64,000 bases of DNA from a candidate division WOR-3 bacterium (GCA_027003075.1 JALWYV010000001.1:24128-88127), one strand, 5' to 3'. Positions 39,753 through 52,865 are shown, counted from the stretch's first letter. The notes: generated from the sequence alone by a model not told the origin. Numbers and translations are program-made.

Positions 39753-40845
39753 TTAACCTTTCCCTTCCCCTTTATGGAAAAGGTAAGCCTTTATGAAATC
39801 GTCCAGTTCGCCGTCAAGAACGGCCTCGGCGTTGGAGGTCTCGTACCCGGTACGGTGATCCTTGACCAGCTTGTAGGGGTAGAGGACGTAGGACCTTATC
39901 TGGTGTCCCCACTCTATGGAGGACTTGGGTCCGGCCAGCTCCTGAAGTTTCTCCTCCTGCTTCTTCCGGTAGTACTCGTACAGGCGGGCCTTTAAAACCC
40001 GCATGGCGTTCTCCCTGTTCTGGTGCTGGGACCTCTCGCTCCTCATTACGACGGTTATTCCCGTAGGTATGTGGGTTATGCGGACGGCCGATTCCGTCTT
40101 GTTCACGTGCTGGCCACCGGCACCGCTGGATCTGAAGGTCTCAATCTTCAACTCGTCCGGCTTTATCTCTACCTCAACGTCCTTCATCTCCGGGAGTACG
40201 CCCACGGCTGCGAAGGAGGTATGTCGGCGGTTGCTGGCGTCAAACGGGGAAATGCGTACCAGACGATGTACCCCCTTCTCTCCCTTCAGGTATCCGTAGG
40301 CGTAGGGTCCCTGAATCATCAGGGTCGCAGACTTTATCCCCGCCTCCTCACCCCTCTGGTAGTCAAGGACGCTCACCCTGTACCCCCTCCTCTCGGCCCA
40401 TCGCACGTACATACGCATAAGCATCTCCGCCCAATCCTGACTCTCCGTCCCCCCTGCTCCGGGGTGGATCTCAAGGATAGCGTTCTGGTAATCCTCCTCG
40501 TTCTGAAAGAGCAGCTTTATCTGGAAATCCTCTATGGCCCTTTTCAGGTCCTCGTACTCCCTGCTCACCTCTTCGGCCACCTCCGGATCCTCCTCGGCCA
40601 GTTCGTAGACCTCCTTCAGGTAGTCTAACCTCTCCCCTATCTCCCTGAAGGTCTTCAGTCTCTCCTTCAGGACGGAAAGCTCCTGCATCACCCTGCTCGC
40701 CCTCTTCTGATCCGACCAGAAGTCCGGTTTCAGGGACTCCTCTTCCAGCTCCTTTATCCGGCTGACGAGGACATCCTCGTCAAAGATACCCCCTTATTTT
40801 CTCGTACTCCCTGACGAGATCCTCTATGTGCGACAGCAGAACCAT
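39753..40845 (-). CDS. prfB: peptide chain release factor 2, made by a programmed +1 ribosomal frameshift
   Basis: Frame-0 ORF of 21 codons (MVLLSHIEDLVREYEKIRGYL) ends in the canonical shift cassette AGGGGG-TAT-CTT-TGA-C at about 40779-40794. The +1 frame continues into the 343-codon ORF containing 'SGAGGQHVNKTESAVRITHIPTG'. Confidence 0.85.
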
Positions 40846-40885
40846 AGGTGGCAATTTTAAAGGGGAAGATTCCTGCCCGGTTCCG

Positions 40886-42563: not shown

Positions 42564-42908
42564 TTATAAGGAAGTTCGCGGCTTTTTTCGTGGCAGGTCA
42601 GAAGTATCTATACCGTACTTGCTCAGGTAGGCCCTTACGAGAAGTTTGAAGAACTTCGTATGTTTCCCGTCCATCAGCTTAAGATGAACCAGCTCGTGTA
42701 CTATCACCTCGTGGCGGAATCGGGCGGGTTGTTTGAGCAGCTCGCTGTTTAAGGTGAGCCTCCCCCTCGTTGAGACGCTCGCCCACTTGCGTTTCATCGG
42801 CCTTACGTGTATCTCCCTCAGCCTGTCCTCAACCCCTATTCTCCTCGCCCATGTCCAGACCTCGGCGATGAGAACATCCCGCATTACGTCATCCCTCATA
42901 TCTCTCAT
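42564..42908 (-). CDS. YgjP-like (DUF45/M48-family) zinc metallopeptidase, short form
   Basis: 'HEVIVHELVHL' is the HExxH motif. It overlaps the hsdR 3' end by 20 nt, a known hsdR-associated position. Confidence 0.65.
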   Translation of the reverse strand: MRDMRDDVMRDVLIAEVWTWARRIGVEDRLREIHVRPMKRKWASVSTRGRLTLNSELLKQPARFRHEVIVHELVHLKLMDGKHTKFFKLLVRAYLSKYGIDTSDLPRKKPRTSL

Positions 42909-45804
42909 CCTCTATCCTCCTAAGTAATCTGAGTATGTCGTTCGTCCACGGCACGACGTCCTTTATTCCGGCCCCAAGGAGGATTTTGTAAATCCTCTTC
43001 CTAAGTCTCCCCTCCTGTGTGGAGCTCCTGCCCCAATAAGGGAACTCCTTCAGGGCTTCGTCTATACCGGTGGCCAGTTTTTCGGAGGTTTCTGGATCCA
43101 TTTCCTTCTGCACGCGCATCCACCACTTTACGGCGAAGGCCTTGCCGGAGAGATGGGTTTCCTTCATCTGTCTCCGGGCCTCCTTTATTTCCCTTACGAG
43201 CCTTTCCAGTTCCTTCAGGGCCTGCCTGCTGTTTATCTGTCTCTCCTCAAAGGCTTTCCTTATCCTCTCCGCCCTCTCTCCTATGGGAATGAGGTAGGGT
43301 TCTTCCCTCCCTTCCTGTGCCACCAGCCGGGCTATGGTGTTCAGGAGGTTGAACATCCTTACGGTTTCGGGTGTGTGTCTTGCCGCAAGGAGGGTCTCAA
43401 GCGTTTCGGGGGTTATCTCGTAGGTTTCGTTCAAAAAGTTAAGCTTTGACGTGTGGGTGTTCCTCTGTACTATCTCAGCCGTTTTCCTGAGGAAGGATTT
43501 ACTGACGTCAACCTTCGGATCGTAGGCGTTTCTGAGTACCCTGTACATCTCCGCCAGTTTCCTGTAGTCCTCTATGAAAGGGCGCAGGAAAGGGTCCGGG
43601 GATATTACCTCGTAGAGTTCCTGAAGTTCGCGGAAGAACCTGTAAAACTCCTCCCTCTTATCCCTGTCCCGAAACCTCTCCAACAGGGCATCGGCCATCC
43701 TGTCGGCGCTCCCCACGTTGAGAAAACTCAGGTATTCCGTTTTTCCGGCCCGTATCAGCTCCGCGAAGCGCTCCTTCAGGACGTCAATCCCCTCCACGAC
43801 CCCCTTTATGTCCTCGGAGTCAAAGGTCAGCGCCCTCTCAAGGTTGTCAAATATGCCGACGAAGTCTATTATCAGGCCGTTGGTCTTCTTGCGGCCGCTT
43901 TCGTCCTCGTAAGGGCGGTTCACTCTGGCGATGGCCTGAAGGAGGACGTGGTCCCGCATGGGTTTGTCAAGGTACATGGCGTAGAGGATAGGGGCGTCGT
44001 AGCCGGTCAGGAGTTTTTCCGTGACGATGAGGATCTTAGGGTTTTCGTCGGGTTTCCTGAAGGCCTTCCTTATGCGGGTCTCCTCCTCGTCGTTCAGGTG
44101 GTAGCGCTTCAGATGGGGAGGGTCGTTGTGGCCCCGGCTTATCACGACCTCGCTGTATTCAGGGGGCAGGTACCTGTCCAGAGCCTCCTTGTAGAGGACA
44201 CACGCCTCCCTATCCACGGCCACAAGGAAGGCCTTGTACCCCATAGGTTCAACGTTGTTTTTGAAGTGATCGGCGACGAAACGGGCGATCTTATCCACCC
44301 TCTCGCTGTTCTTCAGCATGTTTTTGAGCCTGACAGCCCTATCCAATACCCGGTTTATCTCCTCAATGTCGGCCACCCCCTCAAGGGCAGCGGCCTCCCA
44401 GAACTCCTTTTCCATGGTCACCCTGTCAACTACGAGGTCGTTCGGTGCCATCTGGTAGTAGAGGGGAACGGTCGTCCCGTCCTCTATGGACTCCTTTATG
44501 GAGTACTTGTCAAGGTAACCCCTCGGAGGGTCGTCTGCTCCGAAGACCTTGAAGGTACCCTTCCCCTTGCTCGTCTTGTCTATCGGCGTGCCGGTGAATC
44601 CTATAAACGTGGCGTTGGGGAGCGCCCCCATAAGGTAGTTTCCGAGGTCCCCGCCCGTTGATCTGTGGGCCTCGTCTATCAGGACGATTATGTTGGAGCG
44701 GGTGTTTAGATTGGCGTCCGCTTTATCAAACTTATGGATCATGGAAACTATCAGGCCGCGGGTGTCACTCTTGAGGAGTTCCCGCAGGTGTCTTTTGCTC
44801 TTCGCAACGTGAAGGTTGCCGAAGCCCACGGCCTCAAGGTTCTGGAAGAGCTGTTGCTGGAGTTCGTTCCTGTCCACTATCATGAGGACGGTGGGGTTCT
44901 CAAATCTCGGGTCCTCCAGTATCAACCTCGCAATTGTTATCATGGTGTAGGTCTTACCGGAACCCTGCGTGTGCCATACGAGGCCGCGCCGTTTTATGGG
45001 GTCTCTTGCCCTGCCTATAACCTTCCTCACAGCCCGCATCTGGTGGGGTCTCAGAACGACTTTGGAGAGTTCCCCGTCTCTGCGTACGAACAGGATATAA
45101 TCTCTCAGGACCTTCAGGACCCTCTGCGGAGATATAAAGGTTTTTACGAGGGTCTCAAAGTCCCCGGCCTGCTCATCTTTGTAATTGAACAGCGCCTTTC
45201 TGGATAGGTTCCACGTGGGTCCGTAGAAGAACCGGACCCGGTTCGTCAGGGCATATATCTGGCTCTGAACCATGAGTTCGGGGCCCTCTTCGTGGTACCT
45301 GCGTATCTGGTCGTGGGCCTCCGGTATCCCCTCCATCTTCGTGGGTGATTTGGCCTCAAGGATTATTACGGGTATGCCGTTGATGAGGAAGACGACGTCA
45401 GGCCGTATTACGGCCGCACCACTGACAAAACGGAACTCCTCCGTAACGTGGAACGTGTTGTTGCGTGGATTTTTGAAGTCAACGAGACGGACGTTCTTCT
45501 CCCTTTTCTCCACCTCAACGAAAACGGTTTTAAGGCCCTTCAGGTACTCCCACGCCTCGTAATTCCCCTCTATGTTGAGCTTCACCCTTACGAGCCTGTC
45601 TATTACCTCTTCGGCCTTTGTCCTGTTCGTTATGGTAGTGGGGTTGAGTCTCTGAAGCTGCTCTATCAGGATGCTCCGCAGTACGGGGCTGCTCTCCCCT
45701 CCCCTCAGTCTCAGGGCCTCGTCCGGAGGAAGGTACTCCCAACCCACCTCTTGAGCGTGCTGTATTATCGGGTTCTGAACGGTGTGGCGTTCGGAGAACA
45801 TCAC
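42889..45804 (-). CDS. hsdR: type I restriction enzyme R subunit
   Basis: 971 aa with an N-terminal nuclease domain and SF2 helicase motifs ('WHTQGSGKTYTM', 'IVDRNELQQQ', 'DEAHRS'). Host-like GC content. Confidence 0.9.
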   Translation of the reverse strand: MMFSERHTVQNPIIQHAQEVGWEYLPPDEALRLRGGESSPVLRSILIEQLQRLNPTTITNRTKAEEVIDRLVRVKLNIEGNYEAWEYLKGLKTVFVEVEKREKNVRLVDFKNPRNNTFHVTEEFRFVSGAAVIRPDVVFLINGIPVIILEAKSPTKMEGIPEAHDQIRRYHEEGPELMVQSQIYALTNRVRFFYGPTWNLSRKALFNYKDEQAGDFETLVKTFISPQRVLKVLRDYILFVRRDGELSKVVLRPHQMRAVRKVIGRARDPIKRRGLVWHTQGSGKTYTMITIARLILEDPRFENPTVLMIVDRNELQQQLFQNLEAVGFGNLHVAKSKRHLRELLKSDTRGLIVSMIHKFDKADANLNTRSNIIVLIDEAHRSTGGDLGNYLMGALPNATFIGFTGTPIDKTSKGKGTFKVFGADDPPRGYLDKYSIKESIEDGTTVPLYYQMAPNDLVVDRVTMEKEFWEAAALEGVADIEEINRVLDRAVRLKNMLKNSERVDKIARFVADHFKNNVEPMGYKAFLVAVDREACVLYKEALDRYLPPEYSEVVISRGHNDPPHLKRYHLNDEEETRIRKAFRKPDENPKILIVTEKLLTGYDAPILYAMYLDKPMRDHVLLQAIARVNRPYEDESGRKKTNGLIIDFVGIFDNLERALTFDSEDIKGVVEGIDVLKERFAELIRAGKTEYLSFLNVGSADRMADALLERFRDRDKREEFYRFFRELQELYEVISPDPFLRPFIEDYRKLAEMYRVLRNAYDPKVDVSKSFLRKTAEIVQRNTHTSKLNFLNETYEITPETLETLLAARHTPETVRMFNLLNTIARLVAQEGREEPYLIPIGERAERIRKAFEERQINSRQALKELERLVREIKEARRQMKETHLSGKAFAVKWWMRVQKEMDPETSEKLATGIDEALKEFPYWGRSSTQEGRLRKRIYKILLGAGIKDVVPWTNDILRLLRRIEDERYEG

Positions 45805-46313
45805 AGGAAGATATTATATACGATTTGAGCGACCATAAATATTGCCGTAACCAAATACATACAGGCAAAAATTTTGGGAATTAGTGCCTCATAAGAGGTA
45901 AACGGCTTATAAATTTTGGGATGTTTCCCTTGTTTTAATATTTCCCATTCCGCGGTATATGGCTTCACTGGTAGATAATTTTCTAAAGCATGTATAACCT
46001 TAAATTTGCCGCTATTCATTCGTTTATATGAATTTATAAGATCCCCCCATAGCATTGCTATTGCGAATCCTACTAATGAAGCGGGGATTATGAAAAGTGC
46101 ATTTGATGTTTTAAAGGAATACATTATCACCCCGAGAATGGCTGAGTTGATAGTTATGAATAAATTATTCGTCTTATGCCGTCTTTCGCTTATATTGTCC
46201 GTCATTTTTACATAAAGTTTATAAATTTCTAATAGATGATCTTCATATTTATTACCATATCTCTCTTTTTCCAAACCCCTTATAAAATTCGAAAGTTCCA
46301 ACTCCTTATGCAT
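45801..46313 (-). CDS. small three-helix membrane protein (170 aa), candidate effector partner of the TIR protein
   Basis: Three hydrophobic helices (LFITINSAILGVIMYSF, LFIIPASLVGFAIAMLWGDLI and the C-terminal IFACMYLVTAIFMVAQIVYNIFL). It overlaps the TIR gene by 8 nt and hsdR by 4 nt, and is AT-rich. Confidence 0.5.
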   Translation of the reverse strand: MHKELELSNFIRGLEKERYGNKYEDHLLEIYKLYVKMTDNISERRHKTNNLFITINSAILGVIMYSFKTSNALFIIPASLVGFAIAMLWGDLINSYKRMNSGKFKVIHALENYLPVKPYTAEWEILKQGKHPKIYKPFTSYEALIPKIFACMYLVTAIFMVAQIVYNIFL

Positions 46314-46725
46314 TTGCCCATTTTCGTATTGCTCTAACTATAGATTCTGTATTCCATCCAACAATCTCATTAGCGTTTTCCCTTACTTTTCTGGATATTT
46401 TAATCTGACCTCTTGGAACTATTGCAATAATTGGTTTAGGAATTGCAAATTCTTTCTTCGCTATTAATATTTCCTTCTGTATCCATTTACTGTATGTTGC
46501 ATATACTCCAGCCAAAACTAAAACCACATGGCATGATTTCATCTGGTTCTTTATGGCTTCATAAAGTTCTCTATCACTACCGGAGGTATGAATAGGATCA
46601 TCTGGGGGAACAGAATAATCCTTAAATTTAAAATATTTACGCTTTTGTAGGAGATTTATTAATCTCCTATAATGATCCTCATATGTCCATGAATGGCTGA
46701 TAAACAGGTTATACGTCTTTACCAT
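46306..46725 (-). CDS. TIR-like domain protein (DUF1863, Thoeris ThsB-like)
   Basis: 'YNLFISHSWTYED...' matches the ThsB 'VFFSFHYQD' start. '...SKWIQKEILIAKKEFAIPKPIIAI' matches ThsB 'RRWVRYEIMKSIEKGNKIIGI'. 139 aa and AT-rich. Confidence 0.65.
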   Translation of the reverse strand: MVKTYNLFISHSWTYEDHYRRLINLLQKRKYFKFKDYSVPPDDPIHTSGSDRELYEAIKNQMKSCHVVLVLAGVYATYSKWIQKEILIAKKEFAIPKPIIAIVPRGQIKISRKVRENANEIVGWNTESIVRAIRKWANA

Positions 46726-46748
46726 TTTTTGCCTCCTTTAGGTAGATA

Positions 46749-47528
46749 TTATAAGCCCGGATGAACGTCAAGTGGGCAGCTCTCAACCCTCCACCTGAAT
46801 ATTTCATGCTGGACCTCCACAGCCGAACGGTTATCCTTTATGACACCCGCCCACTCCCACGAGAATTCAGCTCTCTTATCCCCTTCAACGAACTTCAAAA
46901 ATCTTCTAAAGGCGATAAAATAATGCTGTACAAGTGATTTGAAAGTATCCTTCGCCTCCATCAAAACGTTCTCTTTTATGCTGATTTTATTTTCCATCCA
47001 GAACATAAAAACGAAGAGTAAAACCTCAACCTTAAGGGACAGATTTATAGAGTCTTTTAGACTCTCCGCTATCTCCGGTCTGTAGATCAAGATAATCGCC
47101 CAAACGGGATGTGAAAACATGGAACGCATAAAATCCGGGTACGTTATACTTTTGAAGTCAAAACTTTTGAATTCTTCAGGTGATTCGTTCAAGACCGTAC
47201 GGATTAGTTTGGATGAGGATTTAACGATCGGTACCAGATAGTTTTCAACATAGGGGAACATATCTATAAGCTGCGGATGGTCTTTGAACCCCTCACCAAT
47301 CCGTTCTATTCCCTCAACTATATCCACTCCCTCCCATTCTTCTGCAAGTTTAGAAAGGACAAGGAACCTTATCTGAAGCAAGGTCGTTAATATTTCCTTA
47401 TCCTCCAACATCTCTGACACATCTTCGTGGCTCTCAACCAGCTCCCTGAACCTCTCAATCAACTCCCTCCCCTTCTCGTCTTCCATCTCCTCAATCATCC
47501 CCGGCGCCAAAATCTCCAACATAGGCAC
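46749..47528 (-). CDS. hypothetical protein (259 aa) inside the defense island
   Basis: ORF with AT-rich codon usage like its neighbours. Contains an 'RELVESH' (R-x5-H) motif of uncertain meaning. Confidence 0.45.
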   Translation of the reverse strand: MPMLEILAPGMIEEMEDEKGRELIERFRELVESHEDVSEMLEDKEILTTLLQIRFLVLSKLAEEWEGVDIVEGIERIGEGFKDHPQLIDMFPYVENYLVPIVKSSSKLIRTVLNESPEEFKSFDFKSITYPDFMRSMFSHPVWAIILIYRPEIAESLKDSINLSLKVEVLLFVFMFWMENKISIKENVLMEAKDTFKSLVQHYFIAFRRFLKFVEGDKRAEFSWEWAGVIKDNRSAVEVQHEIFRWRVESCPLDVHPGL

Positions 47529-47530
47529 GT

Positions 47531-48877
47531 TTATTTTACAGCCGAACCGTCCCCCTCAAACTGCTTGACGAACTCCTTTGGCAGACGCCTTCGGGCCGTT
47601 AAGAGGTCGTGGAGGAGGGTTTTAAAGAGCGTATCTAACGCTTCCACCTTCTTCCTCTCAGCCTCTATTTTGTCATCCACGGCCTTCAGAATTTCGGCTA
47701 TGTGTTTCTGCTCGTGGAGAGGAGGGAGGGGGATGGGGAGAGAAATTAAAAGTGACTTTGGAAGTCTTTGCCGTCCCGTCGTTCCTTCCATCTTACTCGA
47801 TAGATTTTGGCGAACTTTTGGATACTTCAGATAATATGCTAGATAAAACAAATTCAAAGAGCTTTTTTCGTCTGTCCATATTGGAAAAACTTCTGTCGTA
47901 GCGTAACCCCATTCTCCGGGAATACTCTTAACTATTCCCTGTTTTCCGTTCTCAAAACTCGGTGTTATTCGTGCTACCAGTAAATCCCCTTCTTTTACCA
48001 AAACCCCACTTTTAACGTCCTCCCTGCGTCTCATCTCCCACCGCTCTATAAACATAAATTCATCAGGGATAAGACTCATAGGAATGAATGGAATACTATC
48101 CCCACTTAACTTTACCCCTTTGTGTCCGATCTTTACCACCTCCCCCAACCGCACCACCTCCCAATGTTCCGGGATCTTTCCGACTTCCGTTTCCTTCAAC
48201 TTCACCTTATCAACCTCGTCAAGAGGCACGGGGCCGTAGGTGAATAGGTGCCTCATCAAAGACTTCTTGAGTTCCTTGAGAGCCTTTATAACGTTTTCGG
48301 TCTTCTCCTTCGCCTCCTGCACAGCCCTTAAGACGTAGGCGATGGCCCTCTGCTCCGGTAGAGGGGGGAGGGGGAAAAGAACTTTCAGAAAATCTTGGGG
48401 CTTTAGATTTTTTCTCCTGTGGACGACGTTGGAAGCAAAACGCATGTACTGGGAAATCATAAAAGGTTGTTTAACTAACCAGTTAAGAAAATCTAGATCT
48501 ACATCCTTGCGAACTATATCCCACACGTGATAAGCCGGACTCACTGCTCCGATGGGATAATTAGAAACCGCAAGAACACCTTCATTGATGGGAAATCCAT
48601 ATACAAGTTACCCCTTTAACACCACTTTATAATTACTTATATCGCGTCCTGCCACCCTTTTTTTAAATTTTTTAAACTGGGGTATCAATCCGTCGTATCT
48701 AGTAATGGAGAGTATAATACCCTTAAAACTTTGCTCTAAATCCTTTACACGTAGTGAGCTTTTCCTAAACAAATCAGCCCCTTTGACCACCTCCCACTCC
48801 TCCGGCAAAGGCCCTAACTCTGTCATTCTGTGGCCGGGAGGGAAATTGTTAGATTTAATCATTTTTGTTCTGTTCAT
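47531..48877 (-). pseudogene. hsdS: type I restriction specificity subunit HsdS interrupted by one in-frame TAA
   Basis: The 89-aa ORF (48608-48877, 'LPEEWEVVKGADL') and the 337-aa ORF (47531-48544) share one reading frame. They are separated only by a TAA at 48608-48610 and 21 sense codons. Together they make about 448 aa with two target-recognition domains. Confidence 0.6.
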
Positions 48878-50519
48878 GTTGTGTTCCTGTTTTAACTAAA
48901 TGTTTTATCTTGTCAATCATATTTTTTATGTATGTCCATCCCTCGTGATCCCGGTCCGGATCCAATCTCCGTACCGCTTCTCTTGCTATAAATGGTTTAC
49001 CTGTAGATCCTTCATCTTTTGCTTTCTTTTCTAATTCTCTATAATTCGGGAAATATTGCCTCATAGCATTTTCAAAATTTTTCCCAAATATAGTAAACTT
49101 ATCCTCTACAATCCAGTCATTGGCTGATATCAAATCGCCAATTTCATTTTCGTCGTTTATTCCTACTGAACGCAAAACATCTTTACGTTTTATTCCTTGC
49201 TTGTCATCTGTTATATCGTTGTCAAAAATAATATATGTAGGTATACCGTAAGAAGTAAAAAATCTATACCATTTAGCAAGATTTCCCTTGCCGCCTACAC
49301 TTATTATAGCAATACCTTCTTTTTCCAATTGAAAGTACTGCTTTTCAAAAAGTTCTGGCAATGCAAATACTTCAGTAGGCCCTTCTACAAGTATTATAGC
49401 ACGTGCGAAAAAACCTGAAAGAATTTCAGGGGATGCATGAACACTGTAATACGGGATTACCGTGTCTTCATTAACCTTATCGGAAGGAGCCCCTAATTTT
49501 ATAAGACTGTTGGACAGATCTTTGCGGGTTAACTGTCGGGTCCTTGTAGCACCGTTCTCCTTATATACAAGGACTAATCCTTCCAAGTTTTCTATTGATA
49601 GAAATTCAGGGCTATGGGTTGTTATGAGTATTTGGAGTCCCTCCTGAGCTCTGCTGCGGAGCTTTTTGGCAAGCCATTTTTGTGCAAGCGGATGCAAATG
49701 GGCTTCAGGTTCTTCAATAATTAGCAGTATTCCACCGTGAAAGGCTTTTGCATAAGAGTATGCAAGTGTTAGAGCCAAAATTTGTTGTTCACCAGTCCCC
49801 ATCTCTTCCAGAGAAACAACAGTCTCCCCTTCTATGGCTTGTAGTTTTAATGCATGAAAGTAATTTGCTGGATTATAAGCTTCAAAATCCACTTCAAGAC
49901 GATGCTGCATTCCATCAATCATATCATTAAACTCTGTTTGTAAATCATCAACAAATTGTTTGAATGGGGATATCTTGAGAAATTCTTCTTTAATTTGTTC
50001 GAATAATCCATTAAGGTTATTTACTACCTCATTGTGTTCTTTTAAATGTTTATGGAACCTTCTCATAATTCTACTAAGCAATGTCCATTTAGAAGAATAG
50101 CTCAGGTGATAAGAGAGGTTTCTTTCTGCTTCAACCACAACTGCAATGCAGTCTTCTCTATCTTCATTTCTAATATATCTTGCTTCTCCGTGACTGATTC
50201 CTTTATAATACACCGGAATATCTTCTAATGGATTGTATCGCCATATGATAGCTTCAAACTTCCCTGCAAGAGGAGGATCAAATTTTGCGCTAATTTCAAT
50301 CGTATTACTCCTATCTCTACCGAAAAATTCAAAATCTTCAGGGTCGTAATTACCTGGCCAGACAGGCCCCAGAAGTAACCGTATCGCTTTGACTATATTA
50401 GATTTTCCGGCATTATTTTCTCCTATTAATACTACATGACCTGTTTCAGGAAAAACTATTTTCACAGGATCCTTAATAGAACGGTATCCCGAAATTCTTA
50501 TTTCCCTAATCCTACCCAT
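48855..50519 (-). CDS. OLD-family ATP-dependent endonuclease (ABC-type ATPase plus C-terminal TOPRIM), single-gene class 1-like
   Basis: Walker A 'GENNAGKSN', Walker B '[13 protein letters not shown]', H-loop '[10 protein letters not shown]'. The C-terminal TOPRIM has 'ILVEGPTE' and 'IFDNDITDD'. AT-rich. Overlaps hsdS by 23 nt. Confidence 0.8.
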
Positions 50520-50793
50520 TCTCCCCCTCCATCCTAACCCCCAGTACCCTCAACACCTCCCACAACCTCCTGTCCGCCTCCCTCCTCTCGTCCTCCACGA
50601 TCTGCAGGGCCACATCCCGGCTCCCGTACTCCATCGCCAGGGCCTTTATCTCGTCCTCAAAGACGTCCGAAAGGCGCTTGAGGAAAATGAGTGGCAGTAT
50701 GTAGTCCTTGAACTTCGGGGCGTCAATCGGCCCCCTTATCACCGAGGCGGCTTCCCACAACCAGTTTTCAAGCGTCTTTATGCTCAACGCCAT
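50512..50793 (-). pseudogene. hsdM: HsdM N-terminal domain remnant (93 aa); the methyltransferase domain is absent
   Basis: '[41 protein letters not shown]' is the HsdM_N signature. The ORF ends in a divergent tail whose TAG overlaps the OLD ATG (ATGGGTAG). accD follows immediately, so no catalytic domain can be present. Confidence 0.55.
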
Positions 50794-50829: not shown

Positions 50830-51678
50830 TCACCTTATGCCCGCAGTCATCATATCAAGGAGGCGGGCTATGGTACGCTTCATCTCCCTCCTGTCCACCA
50901 CCAGGTCCACCTGCCCATGCTCCAGCTGGAACTCGCTCCTCTGGAATCCGGGAGGGAGGTCCTGCCCTATGGTCTGCTTTATCACCCTCGGCCCGGCAAA
51001 ACCAATAAGGGCGTTCGGTTCTGCTATTATCACGTCCCCTAACGCCGCAAAGCTGGCCATAACACCGCCCATGGTCGGGTCCCCGAGGACGGTTATGTAC
51101 GGAACCCCTCTCTCCTCCAGTTGTATGACCCCCACGGTGGTCTTCACCATCTGCATTAACGAAAATATCCCCTCGTGCATCCTCGCCCCGCCCCCGGAGA
51201 AGAGGACGGCTATGAGAGGTACGCGTTTACGTCGGGACTCCCTTGCCGCTCTGTAGAACTTCTCCCCGAAGACCGACCCCATTGACCCCCCAAGGAAGGC
51301 GAAGTCCGTGAAGAACCCCACCACCTTCCTACCGAATATGTGTCCTATCCCGGCCACGCTGCTGTCTTTGAGGCCGTACAGCCTCTCGTACTTGCGCATC
51401 TTATCCTTGTATCCGGGGAAGTTCAGGGGGTCCGCGGAGACGAGGTTCGCCCCGATCTCCTTCTCTATGCCCTCGTCAAAGAGGAGGTTGGCGTACTCGT
51501 ACGCCCCTATACGGAAGTGATAGCCGCACTTCGGACACACCTTGGCGTTGGCCGTCAGGTCCGGGTTCGGGAGGATGCTCCCGCAGGAGGGACACTTTAC
51601 CCAGAAGTCGTCCGGTATGCTTATCCGGGACTTCTTTTTCGGGGGTGGTACCTTCTTCTTTTTCCTGCGGAAGAACAT
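50830..51678 (-). CDS. accD: acetyl-CoA carboxylase carboxyltransferase subunit beta
   Basis: Zinc ribbon 'CPSCGSILPNPDLTANAKVCPKCGYHFR' and a carboxyltransferase domain. The start at 51678 overlaps the upstream gene's stop (ATGA). The track ORF is over-extended. Confidence 0.9.
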   Translation of the reverse strand: MFFRRKKKKVPPPKKKSRISIPDDFWVKCPSCGSILPNPDLTANAKVCPKCGYHFRIGAYEYANLLFDEGIEKEIGANLVSADPLNFPGYKDKMRKYERLYGLKDSSVAGIGHIFGRKVVGFFTDFAFLGGSMGSVFGEKFYRAARESRRKRVPLIAVLFSGGGARMHEGIFSLMQMVKTTVGVIQLEERGVPYITVLGDPTMGGVMASFAALGDVIIAEPNALIGFAGPRVIKQTIGQDLPPGFQRSEFQLEHGQVDLVVDRREMKRTIARLLDMMTAGIR

Positions 51679-52865
51679 CAGGCCACCTCCACGCCCTCGT
51701 ACACGATCTTCTTCCAGAGCGTACCTACCTCCCTGACCCTGTCGGCCACGTACTCCTTTATGTCCTGAAGCTCCGTATCCGTCACCCCACCCCACACCCT
51801 CGTATGGACGAGCTGGGGTTCGTTGATGGGCCTCCCGATCTGGGAGACGAGGTAGATGTAAACGTTCTCAACGGCCGGGAACCTCTCCACCACCTCCCTC
51901 GCTATCATGTTGGCGGCTACGTTGTATATCTTCCCCACGTGGGAGACGGGGTTTTTGCCGGCCGCGGCCTCAAGGGTCATGGGTCTGTAGGGGGTTATGA
52001 GGCCGTTCACACGGTTCCCCCTTCCCACCTGACCGTCGTCCCCCGCCTCAGCGCTGGTGCCGGTTACGGTTATGTAAACCGACCCCCTCCCGTAGTCGTC
52101 GGCCACGTTGATCTCAACCGACAGGGGGTAATCCCCAAGTATCTCCTTGGCGCGTACGTACACGTCGTTCTGGACCCTCGTCTTCAGTTCCCTGTAGTGT
52201 TTGACGTCCTTCACGTACCTGTCAACGAAGGCGAGGGCCACGGTGATCCGGTAGGTCTTGAGGTCCCTCACCACCATCACCTTTATGTCCTCTCCCACGA
52301 AGGGGTTGTCAGATTTGTACTGGGGTGAATTAAGGAAACGTTCCACCTCGTAGGCCAGCTTTTCGGCCTTCGTCAAAGGGTAGAAGCCAACGCCGAAGGA
52401 CGTGTCGTTGGCAAGGGGAACCCCACCCTCCCTCTCAAAGAGGTCGGTGAGGTCCTCGCTTCCGGCCCGCGCCTTCAGGTATAGGTTGATGTGCCGGTCA
52501 ACGTCAAGGTGGGGGAGGTTCCTGCGGAGCCACTCCTTCGTCGTCTCGTAGTAGATCTCCTCTATCTCCTTACGGAACTCCTCCCCCCTGTACCGGTAGG
52601 TTGCTCTCCCCACGAGGGTGAACTCTATAGGTTCCTTTATCTCCCCTCCTCCGAATCTGGGTGAGGCCTCCCCGCCAACGAGGATGGCCTTGTCAAGGTT
52701 GTGATGCAGTATCTTCCCGAACCTGCCGATGTAAAAACGGGAAAGGGCCCTGCTGTACTCCTCCGCGAGGCTGTCGCATATGGTGTCAGGGTGTCCCGTA
52801 CCCTTACGCTCCACTATCTCAAAGTCTCCCATGAAGGGTGCCGTCTCCAGATCTATCCTGACCAT
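51678..52865 (-). CDS. mat: S-adenosylmethionine synthetase, archaeal-type (MAT)
   Basis: 395 aa with 'ERKGTGHPDTICDSLAEE' near the N-terminus, the archaeal AdoMet synthetase signature. It is not the bacterial MetK pattern. Confidence 0.8.
   Translation of the reverse strand: MVRIDLETAPFMGDFEIVERKGTGHPDTICDSLAEEYSRALSRFYIGRFGKILHHNLDKAILVGGEASPRFGGGEIKEPIEFTLVGRATYRYRGEEFRKEIEEIYYETTKEWLRRNLPHLDVDRHINLYLKARAGSEDLTDLFEREGGVPLANDTSFGVGFYPLTKAEKLAYEVERFLNSPQYKSDNPFVGEDIKVMVVRDLKTYRITVALAFVDRYVKDVKHYRELKTRVQNDVYVRAKEILGDYPLSVEINVADDYGRGSVYITVTGTSAEAGDDGQVGRGNRVNGLITPYRPMTLEAAAGKNPVSHVGKIYNVAANMIAREVVERFPAVENVYIYLVSQIGRPINEPQLVHTRVWGGVTDTELQDIKEYVADRVREVGTLWKKIVYEGVEVA

Follow-up and report, generated by a model that had tools for sequence, protein, structure and literature searches.

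In 2024, Payne et al. catalogued 17,432 non-redundant genes that lie within BREX, DISARM and type I restriction-modification (R-M) systems, under the heading of 'guilt-by-embedding' (10.1101/2024.01.29.577857). Individual examples include TgvAB, embedded in the Vibrio VPI-2 type I R-M system (PMC11411939), and PrrC, which is embedded in the EcoprrI type I R-M system. Here, a type I R-M locus of a candidate division WOR-3 bacterium was examined at positions 42564-50793 of a stretch of 64,000 nucleotides (GCA_027003075.1 JALWYV010000001.1:24128-88127; the whole stretch is referred to as the window), in which genes for an OLD nuclease, a protein of 259 amino acids (u259), a TIR protein and a small membrane protein (8xMP) are lodged among the R-M genes. 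Most probably the locus is a hotspot for embedded defence genes within an hsdM-hsdS-hsdR-ygjP operon, the R-M genes of which have separately decayed, with a cargo that would operate independently of HsdR.

The locus resembles the systems described by Payne et al., and those of TgvAB and PrrC, in that autonomous defence cassettes lie between hsdM, hsdS and hsdR and share their orientation, the open reading frames (ORFs) often overlapping, in that the cargo varies between related loci, and in the ABC-ATPase/TOPRIM type of cargo, which is frequent in such systems. Unlike the published embedded systems, however, the R-M scaffold in the window has been inactivated, by deletion within hsdM and a nonsense codon in hsdS, and therefore neither complementarity nor guarding can be provided from this locus. 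A preliminary description, made from the DNA sequence, had presented the arrangement as undescribed, a view that is untenable given that embedded defence in type I R-M, BREX and DISARM systems has already been catalogued (10.1101/2024.01.29.577857). It had also treated the locus as a defence island re-using a decayed R-M system; the decay and the foreign, low-GC defence cargo are evident, but the coupling of that cargo to HsdR is not. The particular set of a class 1 OLD nuclease, u259 and TIR-8xMP had no second case among the loci retrieved.

Organisation of the locus

Eight genes, overlapped or nearly abutted, were confirmed on the minus strand from the list of ORFs, and are followed by accD:

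42564-42908, minus strand: ygjP, 114 amino acids
42889-45804, minus strand: hsdR, 971 amino acids from a GTG start, 970 from the ATG at 45801
45801-46313, minus strand: 8xMP, 170 amino acids, membrane protein of the PF24838 family
46306-46725, minus strand: TIR protein, 139 amino acids, ThsB-type
45805-46775, minus strand: extent of the TIR-8xMP cassette
46749-47528, minus strand: u259, all-helical orphan, likely start at the ATG at 47522
47531-48877, minus strand: hsdS pseudogene, in two pieces of the same frame (47531-48544 and 48608-48877)
48855-50519, minus strand: OLD, 554 amino acids, class 1-type nuclease with ABC ATPase and TOPRIM domains
50512-50793, minus strand: hsdM, 93 amino acids, internally deleted
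From 50830: accD, adjoining the deleted hsdM

Overlaps are present at the ygjP/hsdR (20 nt), hsdR/8xMP (4 nt), 8xMP/TIR (8 nt), hsdS/OLD (23 nt) and OLD/hsdM (8 nt) junctions, the remaining junctions of the run being gaps of 2-36 nt. The base composition is mosaic. The flanks, the hsdM remnant (0.58) and hsdR have a GC content of 0.53-0.60, and the latter two are host-like in this respect (host GC ∼0.55-0.60), whereas OLD (0.35-0.39), TIR and 8xMP (∼0.32), and u259 and hsdS (0.39-0.47) are lower, the cargo being foreign in composition. The junction between the hsdM remnant and OLD is shared by the public assemblies ERZ23491050 and SRR14510437, and the arrangement is therefore real as opposed to an artefact of assembly. 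All of the domain assignments made in the preliminary description were upheld by profile searches.

Exchange of cassettes between related loci

Eighty loci were retrieved when genomes were scanned with HsdR, the closest of which belong to candidate division WOR-3 metagenome-assembled genomes (MAGs). The canonical gene order of the family is hsdM-hsdS-hsdR-ygjP, with ygjP directly 3' of hsdR in nearly all of the loci (tblastn). Cargo of more than 600 bp occupies 16 of 41 gaps between hsdM and hsdS, and 26 of 56 between hsdS and hsdR. Its genes are of kinds typical of defence or toxin systems (MNT/HepT, SLFN_AlbA_2, Mrr, DarT-Macro, AAA_13, HamA, GmrSD, Piwi, TumE and Fic), with IS200/TnpB in addition.

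Comparison with three of the loci reveals how this cargo is exchanged. HsdR of locus L003 is 99% identical to that of the window, and an identity of 96.6% begins exactly at the ATG of hsdR and continues outward across ygjP and the housekeeping genes. On the upstream side, L003 carries the 3' part of hsdS, a 263-amino-acid homologue of u259 (40% amino acid identity) and, overlapping the latter, a PIN gene that replaces TIR and 8xMP, followed by hsdR. Locus L004, with an HsdR of 84% identity and a chromosomal neighbourhood that differs from that of the window, comprises PIN_12, MNT and HepT, an intact hsdS, a DarT-Macro fusion and DUF3800 ahead of hsdR, and hsdM is missing over a distance of 10 kb. 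In L083, which is a contig from a sister sample, the order is hsdS-DarTG-u235-TIR-8xMP-hsdR, and features of L004 and of the window are thus combined in a mosaic. The DarT-Macro gene has been inserted ∼37 nt before the hsdS stop codon (L004 8968-9150; L083 2385-2570; compare 47420-47600 in the window), and the window-type 3' end of hsdS and the first ∼33 codons of u259 are kept after DarTG, L004 retaining only a 99-bp remnant that lacks the remainder of u259. The junctions at which the swaps occur are fixed, being the 3' end of hsdS, the first ∼33 codons of u259 and the ATG of hsdR. Since the cargo changes while hsdR is constant, and since both the OLD and TIR-8xMP modules occur without type I genes, there is no evidence of a functional tie of either to HsdR. 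The coupling of cargo to HsdR envisaged in the preliminary description had invited a comparison of synteny in related genomes, and is not supported, given the differing cargo of loci with 84-99% identical hsdR.

The closest relative from outside WOR-3 is a locus in a Thermotogota MAG (L015/L173; JAADCS010000093.1), in which the gap between hsdM and hsdS is occupied by a Piwi (pAgo) gene, and that between hsdS and hsdR by DarT-Macro plus an inverted 179-amino-acid homologue of u259.

It might be supposed that all of the DNA between accD and hsdR is a relic undergoing decay, in which the cargo genes are non-functional passengers about to be lost, as two of the three R-M genes have already been inactivated and the low-GC cargo appears to be recent and not ameliorated. 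This is considered highly improbable. OLD, TIR, 8xMP and u259 are all full-length, and their Walker, DxD and TIR E85 motifs are intact. Moreover, the TIR-8xMP cassette in the sister population has 87% nucleotide identity to that of the window (90% for the 8xMP protein), and the u259 frame has stayed open in three variants at identities of 40-76%.

Internal deletion of hsdM

The preliminary description had interpreted the 93-amino-acid ORF adjacent to accD as an N-terminal remnant of HsdM. The N-terminal domain is indeed there, with a match to PF12161 HsdM_N (5e-14) that covers only positions 1-59 of the profile, and residues 1-72 correspond to HsdM residues 1-72 with 81% identity to a Thermotogota HsdM. 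However, the ORF also holds the native C-terminal ∼21 residues, in that residues 73-93 match the extreme C-terminus of HsdM (…EEERAEADRKLREVLGVLGIRIGGRKNGI*). When compared with the full-length HsdM proteins of L015 and L005 (blastp/tblastn), the remnant accordingly aligns in two segments, 1-72 and 496-529. These comparisons indicate that ∼434 hsdM codons, including the whole of the methyltransferase catalytic domain, have been excised in frame. The two ends of the deletion meet near 50577/50578, at an E[DE]ER[RA]E repeat, where the N-terminal motif VEDERRE and the C-terminal motif EEERAE are alike, and the middle of hsdM was therefore excised between the two short repeats encoding this motif, with the frame kept.

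The remnant still begins at the native start codon of hsdM and ends at the native stop, and it overlaps the ATG of OLD, an overlap that was correctly noted at the outset and amounts to 8 nt. Because the C-terminal end of hsdM has been retained, it is the original hsdM stop codon with which the ATG of OLD overlaps. OLD already sat between hsdM and hsdS, and the deletion within hsdM is a separate event.

As had been proposed, there is no methyltransferase catalytic domain at the locus, and the question of whether a full-length hsdM lies just outside the operon was answered in the negative for the 64-kb window: tblastn with two full-length HsdM queries failed to find a catalytic domain there, and a profile hidden Markov model (HMM) built from 37 HsdM sequences matched only the remnant, at HMM positions 11-82 of 517. 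An allele with an intact hsdM was sought also, by means of an exact pattern for the accD-hsdM junction, which returned no matches in the metagenome contigs scanned.

A different configuration was observed in Thermoflexus (L167/L168, 3025-4601), where the hsdM gene beside SLFN and OLD is split into abutting ORFs of 107 (HsdM_N) and 417 (N6_Mtase) amino acids; hsdM may have been disrupted here by another route, or the split may be natural.

Status of hsdS, hsdR and ygjP

Translation of the whole hsdS frame revealed a single in-frame stop, the TAA at 48608-48610 (codon 90), in agreement with the preliminary description, and the gene calls of an independent assembly (L001) show hsdS split likewise. 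Two target-recognition domains are encoded in the one frame, with a Methylase_S match of 6.1e-21 and many matches to PADLOC Specificity_I models. With the catalytic domain of hsdM lost and hsdS interrupted by a nonsense codon, no M2S1 complex can be made from the locus, as had been claimed, and a functional type I R-M system is ruled out as a description of it.

HsdR had been described as an apparently intact protein of 971 amino acids, and both its domains and its pattern of substitution bear this out. The protein matches TIGR00348 (511 bits), HSDR_N (5.6e-38), SWI2_SNF2 (1.8e-64) and a T1R_D3-like profile, and hence has both a nuclease domain and an SF2 motor. Comparison with L003 yielded 14 non-synonymous and 49 synonymous changes, corresponding to a ratio of non-synonymous to synonymous substitution rates (dN/dS) of 0.08; the value against L004 is 0.13, and those of flanking genes range from 0.01 to 0.25. 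On these figures hsdR is both full-length and under purifying selection, and was functional during most of the divergence, which is compatible with provision of HsdM in trans. The dN/dS values sum over time preceding the hsdM deletion, and so give no date for that event. An exact-protein look-up of the 971-amino-acid HsdR returned no record, probably because the start has been called at the ATG. The adjoining ygjP gene encodes a short YgjP-like HExxH metallopeptidase (PF01863, 5.1e-17).

Restriction by type I enzymes requires a complex of 2R+2M+1S, HsdR being dependent upon M2S1 (PMC11411939), and because of this requirement the loss of M first is harmless in type I systems. In this respect the locus is similar to degenerate or orphan R-M systems in which the methyltransferase has been lost first. 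It differs in that hsdM has undergone a clean in-frame excision, leaving a 93-amino-acid ORF that keeps its start, its stop and its overlap with the next gene.

One alternative is that the R-M system is still functional, with HsdM, and possibly HsdS, supplied in trans from another type I locus of the same genome, in which case hsdR-ygjP would encode a working restriction subunit and the cassettes would constitute complementary layers of defence in the manner of BrxU in BREX or TgvAB in the Vibrio type I R-M system. The intact hsdR and its low dN/dS values are in keeping with this idea, although that signal, as mentioned, integrates time before the deletion. Separation of R from M and S also recurs: six related loci (L004, L006, L017, L034, L048 and L059) keep hsdR-ygjP, some of them with hsdS also, and yet tblastn and the profile HMM found no HsdM in the ∼10 kb of upstream flank. 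Additionally, in the TgvAB study, the whole type I R-M cluster is reported to protect 10- to 100-fold more strongly than tgvAB alone (PMC11411939). Against this, there is no HsdM catalytic domain in the 64-kb window, and the local hsdS is broken too, such that both partners would have to come from elsewhere. Provision in trans is, on balance, considered unlikely.

A further idea is that HsdR and YgjP have been kept by selection as an 'R-only' motor-nuclease without an M2S1 complex of their own, acting through the 93-amino-acid mini-HsdM or through the OLD or TIR cargo. The mini-HsdM may be seen in this light in that it consists of exactly the N-terminal segment plus the C-terminal helix and would be translationally coupled to OLD. 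The dN/dS values of hsdR (0.08-0.13), the absence of a nearby hsdM from a second WOR-3 lineage and five more loci, and the preservation of the operon overlaps are all compatible with such a role. This scenario is regarded as very unlikely; if true, it would mean that a type I enzyme has given rise to an 'R-only' defence module.

The preliminary description likened the locus to prr, and a guard arrangement of this kind would have OLD and/or the TIR module silenced by the type I complex, or sensing its state, and fired upon its inhibition by phage. The embedded position and the overlapping ORFs would accord with this, as would the precedent of PrrC in EcoprrI and the report that anti-restriction proteins often act as triggers of ABC-ATPase defence proteins (10.1101/2024.01.29.577857). 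However, a guard needs a working R-M complex, which is absent here, no M2S1 complex being makeable from the locus, and the cargo differs between strains with the same hsdR. Furthermore, OLD and TIR-8xMP are found also beside BREX, MmeI-like enzymes, GmrSD and housekeeping genes, and neither resembles PrrC or RloC, which combine AAA_13 with an anticodon nuclease. A guard function is therefore scarcely to be credited. Membership of the PrrC-type guardian family was excluded on the same grounds, with a cargo lacking AAA_13/PrrC features and an inactive R-M system.

The OLD nuclease

The OLD protein has matches to AAA_15 (5.6e-30), AAA_21 (2.1e-23) and OLD-like_TOPRIM (3.2e-23). Its best PADLOC model is 'Old' (1.3e-47), with GajA models lower (2.2e-44), and the best solved structure is 6p74, the OLD protein of Thermus scotoductus (5.8e-31 over residues 5-437). 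In common with class 1 OLD proteins (P2 Old, 6p74), an N-terminal ABC ATPase and a C-terminal TOPRIM domain are present in a single polypeptide, without a tandem helicase gene. Unlike those proteins, the window OLD is embedded 3' of a methyltransferase gene, being neither phage-borne nor isolated, and it has ∼115 C-terminal residues beyond the 6p74 match. An obligate tandem partner of the GajB (class 2), retron (class 3) or AriB (class 4) kind is absent, the neighbours being the deleted hsdM and hsdS, and those of orthologues are variable (SLFN, MmeI-like, hsdS). Identification as Gabija was rejected, since there is no adjacent UvrD-like GajB and the 'Old' model outscores GajA.

Orthologues with 58-60% identity are located after methyltransferase genes in three further loci. 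The order is hsdM-SLFN-OLD-hsdS in L171, with OLD and hsdS overlapping as in the window, and hsdM-SLFN-OLD in L167 (Thermoflexus); in L169, OLD follows an MmeI-like methyltransferase and precedes more genes, Piwi among them. The position of OLD 3' of methyltransferase genes elsewhere indicates recurrent embedding, as opposed to a feature created by the hsdM remnant. It had been suggested that the remnant and OLD might be specially coupled, and that the pairing could recur in related genomes. What recurs is OLD after a methyltransferase gene; in L171 that gene is an intact hsdM, and OLD in the window follows the native hsdM stop just as the cargo does in L171, which leaves no place for a special coupling.

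The TIR-8xMP module

The TIR protein matches PF08937 ThsB_TIR (3.7e-16) and PADLOC ThsB (1.4e-11), and has a candidate catalytic residue, Glu85, in the motif SKWIQKE, which corresponds in the alignment to SKWIDAE in the TIR of the validated type IV Thoeris. A 2025 preprint annotated 29 putative Thoeris types and validated types V-XI (10.64898/2025.12.03.692087). Among these, type V consists of ThsB and ThsF/DUF2270, an effector with three transmembrane (TM) helices that is activated by 3'cADPR. Table S1 of the same work lists a '3TM' effector class that was left out of those chosen for testing. The TIR of the window shares 62.6% identity with one of the TIRs associated with '3TM' and 56% with that of the validated type IV from the table, and falls in the same TIR cluster as both, while TIRs adjoining 8xMP in the retrieved loci are 47-70% identical to '3TM' TIRs. 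Pairs of a TIR with a '3TM' protein are thus already on record in the preprint.

The three-TM protein beside TIR, recognised as such in the preliminary description, could be assigned to PF24838, '8xMP' (1.5e-36). It has an N-terminal amphipathic helix and three long TM helices, and is modelled by AlphaFold2 (AF2) with a pLDDT of 88.9; the family alignment contains invariant charged and aromatic positions in the TM2-TM3 loop (SY..LNSGKFKV…LP..PY.AEW). No significant sequence or Foldseek fold match was found in the PDB, no PADLOC model matched, and literature searches under the names of the family ('8xMP', 'PF24838', 'octameric membrane protein') were unproductive. The Pfam matches of 34 family members at E<=1 included no DUF2270, Macro or SLOG, and a lone SLATT_1 match (E 0.044) was non-significant. 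Hence, although the module resembles Thoeris systems with membrane effectors in that a ThsB-type TIR gene precedes that of a small protein with three TM helices, this protein differs from their known effectors. Thoeris type V was rejected because no member matches PF10028 (DUF2270), and types I, II, V and VII were rejected at the effector, 8xMP matching PF24838 only and lacking SIR2-SLOG, Macro-TM, DUF2270 and significant SLATT matches. The general features of Thoeris are nevertheless present, namely a ThsB-type TIR with a catalytic-type glutamate, in a two-gene operon with a candidate cell-killing effector. We infer that the '3TM' effector class probably corresponds to the 8xMP family.

TIR-8xMP is an autonomous, widespread two-gene cassette that occurs also outside type I loci. 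In all five exact-protein look-ups that were made, a ThsB_TIR gene of ∼135 codons was situated directly upstream of 8xMP, mostly overlapping it. One such pair is located inside a BREX system (L086 4600-5522), between a 1157-amino-acid gene in the BrxC position and a PglX-like methyltransferase, and another adjoins GmrSD. In one metagenome scan at least 379 relatives were confirmed, and a ThsB-type TIR was adjacent in 50 of 69 evaluable 8xMP loci (upstream and on the same strand in 44, among the matches listed). Some 8xMP genes are paired instead with SLOG (LD_cluster3) or a larger TIR_2 protein (L090 984-1805; L104 1922-3223), which fits with a role of 8xMP as an effector that can be exchanged from one nucleotide-signalling partner to another.

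In the window, TIR-8xMP is bracketed exactly by a 14-nt direct repeat, TATAATATCT[A/T]CCT (minus strand, 13 of 14 positions identical), at 46740-46753 and 45805-45818, although around half a dozen such 13/14 matches are estimated to occur by chance in 8.6 kb. Both copies are present in L083, and neither is found in L003 or L004, which lack the cassette. The repeat could be a scar of insertion or a product of chance. Its upstream copy lies inside a TTGACG-N12-TATAAT box, which is followed by an AAGGAGG ribosome-binding site and the TIR ATG; a canonical sigma-70 promoter is not claimed, the two boxes being merely 12 nt apart.

The u259 protein

None of the profile libraries used contained a family match to u259, and its relatives are scarce, with three proteins found among 5.8 billion and five representatives among 1.84 billion. 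Four of the five representatives traced are located in the gap between hsdS and hsdR of the HsdR family of the window, one of these, that of the Thermotogota locus, being on the opposite strand. A divergent relative (P0247) is situated among housekeeping genes, and a further fragment of the family, P0245, has 93 amino acids. The predicted fold is all-helical, without an informative fold match. Given the overlap of its homologue with a PIN gene in L003, a role as an antitoxin or regulator would be no more than a guess.

Other genes in the window

Two genes beyond the locus deserve mention. The prfB gene for release factor 2 (RF2; 39753-40850, minus strand) has an ORF that lacks its first ∼50 codons in frame, and CTTTGAC at 40779-40785 (minus strand), just upstream of the ORF, is the classical site of the RF2 programmed +1 frameshift. 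The S-adenosylmethionine synthase gene (51678-52865, minus strand) encodes the archaeal type of enzyme (PF01941 AdoMet_Synthase) and not the bacterial MetK.

Proposed function and significance

The type I operon of this hot-spring WOR-3 bacterium would, then, resemble many members of its family in serving as a docking site for exchangeable anti-phage cassettes, with a stand-alone class 1 OLD nuclease in the gap between hsdM and hsdS, and the orphan u259 plus a self-contained TIR + 8xMP module in that between hsdS and hsdR. By analogy, TIR and 8xMP most likely function in a Thoeris-like manner, in that infection would cause TIR to turn NAD+ into an ADP-ribose-derived signal, which would open or assemble an oligomer of the three-TM 8xMP in the membrane and result in abortive infection. 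OLD is most likely an ATP-powered TOPRIM nuclease, self-triggered in the manner of phage P2 Old. HsdR would be inert unless HsdM and HsdS were supplied from elsewhere in the genome.

Several points weigh against this interpretation. The intact hsdR has dN/dS values (0.08-0.13) that resemble those of flanking housekeeping genes, and the absence of hsdM from the flank of a second WOR-3 lineage (L004) and five further loci may mean that HsdR is not a mere relic. Given the tight overlaps of 8, 23, 8, 4 and 20 nt, the cargo and the R-M genes could be co-translated. A role for OLD, TIR-8xMP and u259 in phage defence in this bacterium is putative, and the equation of '3TM' with 8xMP was made from TIR similarity and the number of TM helices, not from effector sequences.

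The recurrence of hsdR-ygjP without hsdM raises the question of whether HsdR acts in trans or has another role. The orphan gene u259 is among the most useful leads from the locus, as is the compact TIR-8xMP pair. Since its TIR is 56% identical to that of the validated type IV, this pair could readily be put forward as a new type of Thoeris, the membrane effector of which would have a new fold. Finally, the WOR-3 loci constitute a series of clean, natural cassette swaps at fixed junctions, which should be useful for the study of turnover in embedded-defence hotspots.

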